A program made the translations under genes and the position numbers. This document shows, piece by piece, positions 1,787 to 3,139 of a stretch of 8,671 bases of DNA. Source of the stretch: a virus (Duplodnaviria > Heunggongvirae > Uroviricota > Caudoviricetes); IMG/VR virus record IMGVR_UViG_2537562017_000016; one strand, written 5' to 3'. The notes below the pieces were generated by a model. That model was not told the DNA's origin and searched no databases. It saw nothing but the letters and a program-made list of their open reading frames with translations. How positions within the stretch are numbered: position 1 is the stretch's first letter; each line of letters opens with the position of its first letter.

Positions 1787-3139
1787 CTGGCGCTGGGACG
1801 GTACACGCTGACAGTCCGGGCGGTAAATGCGTGGGGACAGCAGGGCGATCCGGCATCGGTATCGTTCCGGATTGCCGCACCGGTAGCGCCGTCGCGGATT
1901 GAGCTGACGCCGGGCTATTTTCAGATAACCGCCACGCCGCATCTTGCGGTTTATGATCCGACGGTACAGTTTGAGTTCTGGTTCTCGGAAACGCGGATTA
2001 CCGATATCAGGCAGGTTGAAACCACAGCCCGCTACCTTGGCACGGGGCTGTACTGGATAGCCGCCAGTATCAATATTAAGCCGGGCCATGATTATTATTT
2101 TTACGTTCGCAGTGTGAACACCGTTGGCAAATCGGCATTCGTGGAGGCCGTCGGTCGGGCGAGCGATGATGCGGAAGGTTACCTGGATTTTTTCAAAGGC
2201 AAGATAACCGAATCCCATCTCGGCAAGGAGCTGCTGGAAAAAGTCGAGCTGACGGAGGATAACGCCAGCAGACTGGAGGAGTTTTCGAAAGAGTGGAAGG
2301 ACGCCAACGATAAGTGGAATGCGATGTGGGGCGTCAAAATTGAGCAGACCAAAGACGGCAAACATTATGTCGCGGGTATTGGCCTCAGCATGGAGGACAC
2401 GGAGGAAGGCAAACTGAGCCAGTTTCTGGTTGCCGCTAACCGTATCGCGTTTATTGACCCGGCAAACGGGAATGAAACGCCGATGTTTGTGGCGCAGGGC
2501 AACCAGATATTCATGAATGACGTGTTCCTGAAACGCCTGACGGCTCCCACCATTACCAGCGGTGGAAATCCGCCGGCATTTTCCCTGACACCGGACGGAA
2601 AGCTGACCGCTAAAAATGCGGATATCAGCGGTAATGTGAATGCAAATTCAGGGACGCTCAACAATGTCACGATTAATGAAAACTGTCAGATTAAGGGGAA
2701 ACTGTCAGCCAATCAGATTGAAGGCGATATTGTCAAAACGGTCAGCAAGTCTTTCCCCCGCACGAACAGTTATGCCAGTGGCACCATCACGGTAAGAATC
2801 AGTGATGATCAGAAATTTGACCGGCAGGTCATGATACCGCCAGTGTTATTCCGCGGTGGTAAGCATGAGAATTTCAACAGTAATAACCAACAGTCATACT
2901 GGTATTCAACCTGCCGGTTAAGAGTGACCCGCAATGGTCAGGAGATTTTTAATCAGTCCACGACGGATGCTCAGGGCGTATTTTCCTCAGTTATAGATAT
3001 GCCTGCCGGACAGGGGACGCTGACACTGACATTCACCGTATCTTCATCAGGAGCGAATAACTGGACACCAACAACCAGTATCAGCGATCTGCTGGTTGTG
3101 GTGATGAAAAAATCCACAGCAGGTATCAGTATCAGCTGA
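1787..3139 (+). CDS. J: J fragment: C-terminal part including the receptor-binding end; continuous frame with no internal stop
   Basis: Frame 2 is open from 1727 to 3139 and J-like from about 1787 ([32 protein letters not shown]...[28 protein letters not shown]...). The ORF track starts it at GTG 2114 only because no ATG/GTG/TTG occurs earlier in frame. Confidence 0.6.

Follow-up and report, generated by a model that had tools for sequence, protein, structure and literature searches.

An A8-type gpJ receptor-binding module in a lambda-like prophage of Escherichia coli 178200

The distal tail region of a lambda-like prophage

The window analysed here is the complete 8,671-base contig APWY01000131.1 from the draft assembly GCA_000358895.1 of Escherichia coli 178200, and it holds the distal tail region of a lambda-like prophage, with both contig ends falling within prophage sequence. 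It begins inside J, the gene for the tail tip or central fibre protein (1–3139, plus strand), of which some 238 nt are missing at the 5' end; what remains lines up with lambda J between position 239 and the stop codon, positions 1263–4661 of the lambda locus sequence serving as the reference for this alignment. The J annotation is common to all related phages and genomes examined. Downstream of J lie lom, encoding an Ail/Lom outer-membrane protein (3206–3802, plus strand, present as two ORFs at 3206–3469 and 3497–3802 with Pfam Ail_Lom on both halves), the side tail fibre gene stf (3861–7091, 1,076 codons), the tail fibre assembly gene tfa (7091–7675) and, on the minus strand, the serine recombinase gene pin (7786–8376). 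The best match to the window among complete E. coli genomes has 95.9% identity.

The 3' part of J encodes two recognizable domains. The first, PF09327 (Phage_Tail_Tip; 2273–2656, plus strand; residues 54–181 of a 341-aa ORF; E 1.4e-35), corresponds to the lambda-type central straight fibre, and its DNA is 97–100% identical to that of lambda. The second, PF12421 (Ig_GpJ_C; 2762–3136, plus strand; residues 217–341 of the same ORF), is the Ig-like receptor-binding domain, matched at 126.7 bits against a cutoff of 26.2 (E 8.4e-37) over profile positions 15–135 of 135. This domain order is that of lambda J, in which the two occupy residues 845–972 and 1001–1132. On both profile match and position, the module that ends the gene (2630–3139, plus strand; the last 169 J codons and the stop) is assigned to the gpJ C-terminal receptor-binding family, and it takes in the Ig-like domain and the final turns of the beta-prism fibre. 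Scans of both strands of 2640–3139 for Rfam families and promoters returned no RNA family and no promoter-like site, and a terminator scan of the same interval returned only two short 5-pair hairpins, at 2925–2940 (plus strand) and 2831–2818 (minus strand).

Several minor features were observed further downstream. The N-terminal third of stf shows a strong A-over-T skew (4200–5200; up to 0.42), and long antisense ORFs lie within this skewed region at 4361–5110 and 4540–5148. Inside the 3' half of tfa, Rfam RF02111 (IS009, a candidate small RNA) finds a full-length match on the plus strand (7434–7632; 228 bits against a gathering score of 117). The spacer between tfa and pin (7664–7761) has ten small insertions relative to phage 2H10 and E. 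coli J6, and contains a 17-nt near-perfect palindrome (7684–7722; AAACTGCAGGATATTAT / ATAATATTCTGCAGTTT). No alternative tail-fibre segment is present beside the pin recombinase gene in the window. In the complete genome of E. coli J6, the equivalent prophage end (J6 locus 10433–12818) is followed by pinQ, ydfK, ynfT and a truncated ydfJ, and the J6 tfa is interrupted by an IS3 element.

Divergence, composition and flanks of the J terminus

The initial annotation, made without database searches, held that the C-terminus of J departs from that of lambda, and alignment bears this out. DNA identity to lambda J is 93–100% up to about 2600, 82% at 2601–2700 and 48–58% from 2700 to the end, with the mismatch density stepping up at about 2629. 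At the protein level, the 172 residues before the module are 98.8% identical to lambda J, whereas the last 169 are 46.2% identical (173 aligned positions, with loop indels), far from the high identity to lambda J residues ~965–1132 that a lambda-type, LamB-binding allele would show. The peptide singled out in that annotation is read in frame 2 and runs up to the stop codon (3137–3139). The module is likewise distant from the J C-terminus of lambda h434 (48.9% by tblastn), which sets it apart from the 434-type allele, and it has about 64% identity to the 1A2 allele.

A much closer match came from a sequence search of solved structures, in which the chain ‘A8 gpJ 713’ (PDB 9wca and 9wcb) ranked above lambda J. 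In A8, a chimera, lambda gpJ gives way at residue 964 to the C-terminus of a natural gpJ variant from E. coli (Brödel et al., Nature 2024, PMC11338833). Over 341 residues, the window protein differs from this chain only at three positions of the lambda-like part (N/S, G/A and N/S) and at the start-codon residue; no difference occurs beyond the ...ISG(N/S)VNANS... position, and identity is complete (100%) throughout the divergent part. The A8 DNA as published matches window positions 2567–3139 at 95%, a figure to be read with the supplement in mind, as its sequence is machine-read text and the alignment gaps are reading errors. An origin of the window itself as an engineered A8 construct was considered and rejected: its lambda-type part differs from lambda at 3–7% of bases, and the draft genome to which the contig belongs is of 2013 vintage.

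The last ~500 bp of J had also been described as more AT-rich than the remainder, and a GC plot agrees. The GC content of 2640–3139 is 0.464 (46.4%), against 0.579 (57.9%) for 1–2639 (binomial z −5.2); J is not uniform, and every sliding 500-bp window within 1–2639 has a GC content of at least 0.52. This final drop adds to an earlier step near 1900, from about 0.65 to about 0.53. A lower GC content at the 3' end is, however, a general trait of J receptor-binding ends and by itself no mark of this or a recent swap. In eight of eight J genes, drawn from six allele classes, the last 507 bp have a GC content of 0.46–0.54 against 0.575–0.589 for the body; lambda J is one of them and has the smallest drop (0.544 against 0.576). 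Composition alone proves no swap, since low GC is common to all J alleles examined.

We therefore lean towards an explanation in which the AT-richness is intrinsic to J receptor-binding ends, arising from amino-acid composition and a weaker codon bias, rather than a sign of foreign origin or recent transfer. Besides the recurrence of the trait in all eight alleles, lambda included, the codon positions speak for this: relative to the in-frame sequence just upstream (2114–2632), GC1 falls the most (0.566 to 0.420), reflecting loops rich in Asn, Ser, Thr, Ile and Lys, and GC2 rises slightly. GC3 falls as well, though (0.659 to 0.521), so codon usage differs in addition to protein composition, and the GC drop in the window J is three to four times that of lambda. 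The matter bears only on what the composition means and not on the swap itself, for which the case is made by patterns of sequence identity, not by GC.

Those patterns vary with the relative chosen. Against lambda h434, the window is 95% identical over 1802–2697 and 93.7% identical over 3101–4285, and unalignable between the two. Against Chlobot, positions 2594–3139 are identical, and the last 169 residues of its J are 100% identical to the window module, but 2150–2500 is only 54–65% identical, with Chlobot carrying 84 extra bases there. Because the identity blocks shared with Chlobot and with h434 differ, domain and shaft assort independently; the comparisons show a receptor-binding block of ~400–500 bp with conserved flanks on both sides, which assorts independently of both the shaft and lom, as exchange by homologous recombination would predict. 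The pairing of a lambda-type shaft with an A8 domain is also found in phage 2H10 and in E. coli J6.

On the left, the conserved junction (2504–2629, plus strand) is alike in lambda-type, 434-type and A8-type J genes and is likely the crossover zone: similarity to Chlobot starts at about 2504, similarity to lambda stops at about 2629–2660, and the fusion point engineered into A8 (lambda residue 964) maps within this interval. On the right, the conserved junction (3101–3205, plus strand) consists of the final ~13 J codons and the J–lom spacer, is common to the 434-type J locus, and carries a terminator-like hairpin with a T-run (3157–3176). Homologous recombination within these flanks (~2504–2629 on the left, from ~3101 on the right) could move the cassette between J genes, and we infer that exchange proceeds in this way.

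Two further mosaic features adjoin the block. Relative to lambda, the divergence continues through the J–lom spacer and ~470 bp of lom to about 3675; this stretch (3140–3675) cannot be aligned with lambda and is 94% identical to the 434-type locus, so at least two 5' allele types of lom exist. A GC-rich hairpin with a T-run behind it stands just past the J stop (3157–3176) and another just past lom (3829–3850), bracketing lom like a separate transcription unit. A second mosaic joint lies at 2150–2500, where the helical-shaft/fibre segment is 97–100% lambda-type and 54–65% identical to Chlobot and the phage phi330 (84 extra bases); as it is lambda-type here yet diverged from Chlobot and phi330, the shaft is another exchangeable module.

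A broken reading frame in this copy

As deposited, J does not join its hub domains to its receptor-binding domain in a single uninterrupted frame, but is broken at 18 frame-change sites. Compared with lambda, Chlobot, 2H10 and E. coli J6, a cluster at 1134–1782 (plus strand) contains 18 deletions of 1–4 bp, 22 bp in total, with a net −1 effect that leaves the N- and C-terminal parts of J in different frames. J is read in frame 3 up to 1256 and in frame 2 from 2114, and the module sits in the ORF at 2114–3139 (341 residues). Left in this state, J would carry a receptor-binding domain unattached to the tail tip. Smaller losses affect the neighbouring genes: relative to the same relatives, lom lacks 2 bp and 1 bp at 3439 and 3477, which splits it as deposited, and stf lacks 3 bp at three exactly spaced sites (4221, 4239 and 4257).

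Taken literally, these lesions would make J a genuine pseudogene and the module dead cargo, with no receptor-binding tail tip made in E. coli 178200. The count of deletions against every relative examined (18 in J, 2 in lom, 3 in stf) and the splitting of J by gene callers into separate 417-aa and 341-aa products fit such decay, but the character of the deletions makes it unlikely. There are no insertions among them, they are confined to the most GC-rich stretches (0.60–0.68 in J), and several fall at exact 8-nt spacing (four in J, at 1606, 1614, 1622 and 1630) or exact 18-nt spacing. Substitution divergence within the deletion stretch is ordinary (32 in 700 relative to lambda), the deletions in lom and in stf each total 3 bp, and the receptor-binding part matches Chlobot at all 539 aligned bases. 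Moreover, the window is a whole 8.7-kb draft contig that ends inside prophage repeats, and E. coli genomes matching any part of it do so at a median of 4 places, which favours a mis-assembled consensus. The deletions are thus probably errors of sequencing or assembly in a collapsed prophage repeat, and the contig may represent several prophage copies merged into one consensus.

OmpC as the receptor of A8 and the probable receptor of this prophage J

For the A8 C-terminus, the receptor has been examined in cells lacking both candidate porins. A8 particles deliver DNA into lamB/ompC double-deletion cells complemented with ompC, and wild-type lambda particles do not (PMC11338833). In MG1655 deleted for ompC and lamB and carrying K-12 ompC on a plasmid, A8 gave 95% GFP-positive cells at an MOI of 84, compared with 1.9% for wild-type lambda at an MOI of 135 (PMC11338833 source data), and delivery reached 90% at an MOI of ~20 on K-12 and EDL933 OmpC alike (PMC11338833). 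A8 works on most of 23 OmpC variants and failed or was weak on some, while one or the other of A8 and a second chimera, 1A2, works on 21 of the 23 (PMC11338833). Since OmpC exists as different alleles, not every host need be susceptible. In addition to the gpJ chain, PDB 9wcb holds three chains of Outer membrane porin C, a co-deposition that suggests direct contact between gpJ and OmpC; a literature search for a publication describing 9wca or 9wcb found none.

A second line of evidence comes from vB_EcoS_phi330 (PV189401), an Stx2a siphophage that was plated on 54 Keio outer-membrane mutants: it grows on 53 and fails on the ompC deletion, in which Plac-ompC restores plating (PMC12502783). Compared with the window, the phi330 J C-terminus has 3 differing residues out of 169 (98.2% identity). 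In an AlphaFold3 model of phi330, a hairpin (E953–S962) lies in the OmpC barrel and a second segment (A1015–P1020) on its rim (PMC12502783), and both predicted contact hairpins (the 10-residue main hairpin and ANNWTP; residues 953–962 and 1015–1020) are identical in the window and phi330. The window module therefore has the predicted contact loops of an A8-type allele, to the extent that the phi330 model assigns the contacts correctly, and by identity and loops it is classed with the A8/phi330 allele of gpJ.

The initial annotation had read the C-terminus as a swapped module implying a different receptor, and comparison with characterised gpJ C-termini upholds that reading: the protein is the A8 allele (100% over the divergent part; 98.2% to phi330), for which the A8 and phi330 literature names OmpC, not LamB. 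The observation is real, with composition and divergence both well outside chance, and was correctly read, and it is already known, as the OmpC receptor, the structure and the modular behaviour of this allele have been published. From this kinship, the J of the present prophage would itself be expected to use OmpC. Other sources were of less help. A search of the literature on PhiR and mEp phages with matching J genes found no useful receptor data, and a 2026 receptor-prediction preprint covers Drexlerviridae gpJ loci, not lambdoid alleles. Φ21 was considered as a carrier of the A8-type allele and rejected, its native receptor being LamB and its J lambda-like.

That the domain is instead a diverged binder of LamB, the lambda receptor, with a merely drifted sequence would agree with the shared fold family (Pfam Ig_GpJ_C) and conserved core, but is highly improbable given that both the selection and the testing of A8 particles took place in lamB-deleted cells and that the particles need plasmid-borne ompC, that phi330 plates on all tested Keio outer-membrane mutants except the ompC deletion, and that the loops are re-modelled, the main hairpin having a 6-residue insertion relative to lambda. 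Equally hard to credit is the idea that the frameshifts are real and that the 341-residue ORF (helical shaft, beta-prism and OmpC-binding domain) is expressed alone from a decayed prophage as a free trimeric OmpC ligand, which, if true, might for instance shield OmpC from colicins or from other phages that depend on it; the GTG at 2114 encodes a valine inside J, and a promoter scan of 2400–3900 found no promoter-like site.

The best explanation as a whole, to which we give a probability of about 90%, is that 2630–3139 encodes the A8-allele receptor-binding end of J, an exchangeable cassette that docks on OmpC. In the virion, three copies of the domain would form the tip of the central fibre, and their bottom loops (the long main hairpin, six residues longer than that of lambda in the alignment, and ANNWTP) would dock into and onto trimeric OmpC rather than LamB. 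Cryo-EM of lambda bound to LamB showed the three domains moving apart at their bottoms on binding (PMC11101478). By analogy with that system (PMC11101478), binding of OmpC may spread the three domains, a twist may travel up the fibre, and the tail may open for DNA ejection. We infer such a lambda-like trigger relay in this J from its shaft, which just before the module is 98.8% lambda-like.

Among known systems, A8 (PMC11338833; 9wca/9wcb) is the closest, sharing the identical divergent residues, a lambda-type shaft upstream, the same junction region (lambda residue 964) and the receptor OmpC; it differs in having been engineered onto the J of laboratory lambda, the gene in the window being natural and having its frame broken upstream. 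Phage phi330 (PMC12502783) shares 98.2% of 169 residues and both predicted contact hairpins, and its OmpC dependence was established by knockout and complementation. Its shaft is of another type, however (51.5% identity over the preceding ~200 residues), its J is annotated at 1042 aa, and one short loop differs (TNSY/TSTY). Natural A8-type alleles vary at 3 positions (N/S, N/S and, near the TNSY loop, S/T). Lambda gpJ itself, the LamB binder (PDB 8xcj, 8xck and 8iyk), has the same domain family at the end of its 1132-aa J, 98.8% fibre identity upstream and presumably the same trigger mechanism, but differs in its last 169 residues (46% identity), its loop lengths, its receptor and the 5' part of lom.

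Two more distant allele groups occupy the same cassette position and are also directed at OmpC. The 434-type J of lambda h434 hybrids has flanks 94–95% identical to the window, but its domain is only about 48–49% identical, its third contact loop is longer, and it forms a separate allele class. The 1A2 (Brödel et al.) and Stx2a_2499-type alleles have about 64% identity to the window, and of the K-12 and EDL933 OmpC proteins, 1A2 works on the latter alone and A8 on both.

The window adds no new biology, but it does show that a J combining a lambda-type shaft with an A8 domain occurs in nature, mirroring the engineered chimera, and that the cassette is bounded by conserved flanks. The practical importance of the allele is already recognised: it is the one picked, as A8, for retargeting lambda-based gene-delivery particles to gut E. 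coli, and it identifies the porin used for entry by a large fraction of the lambdoid prophages of E. coli, among them many Stx1 and Stx2 phages. It is among the commonest in E. coli: the 500-bp segment occurs at ≥95% identity in 44 phage records, with Stx1a, Stx2a and Stx2c converting phages accounting for many, and in ~1,500 records from a set of 5,426 complete E. coli genomes, nearly always on a chromosome, and the 90%-identity protein cluster that contains the ORF has 25,550 members.
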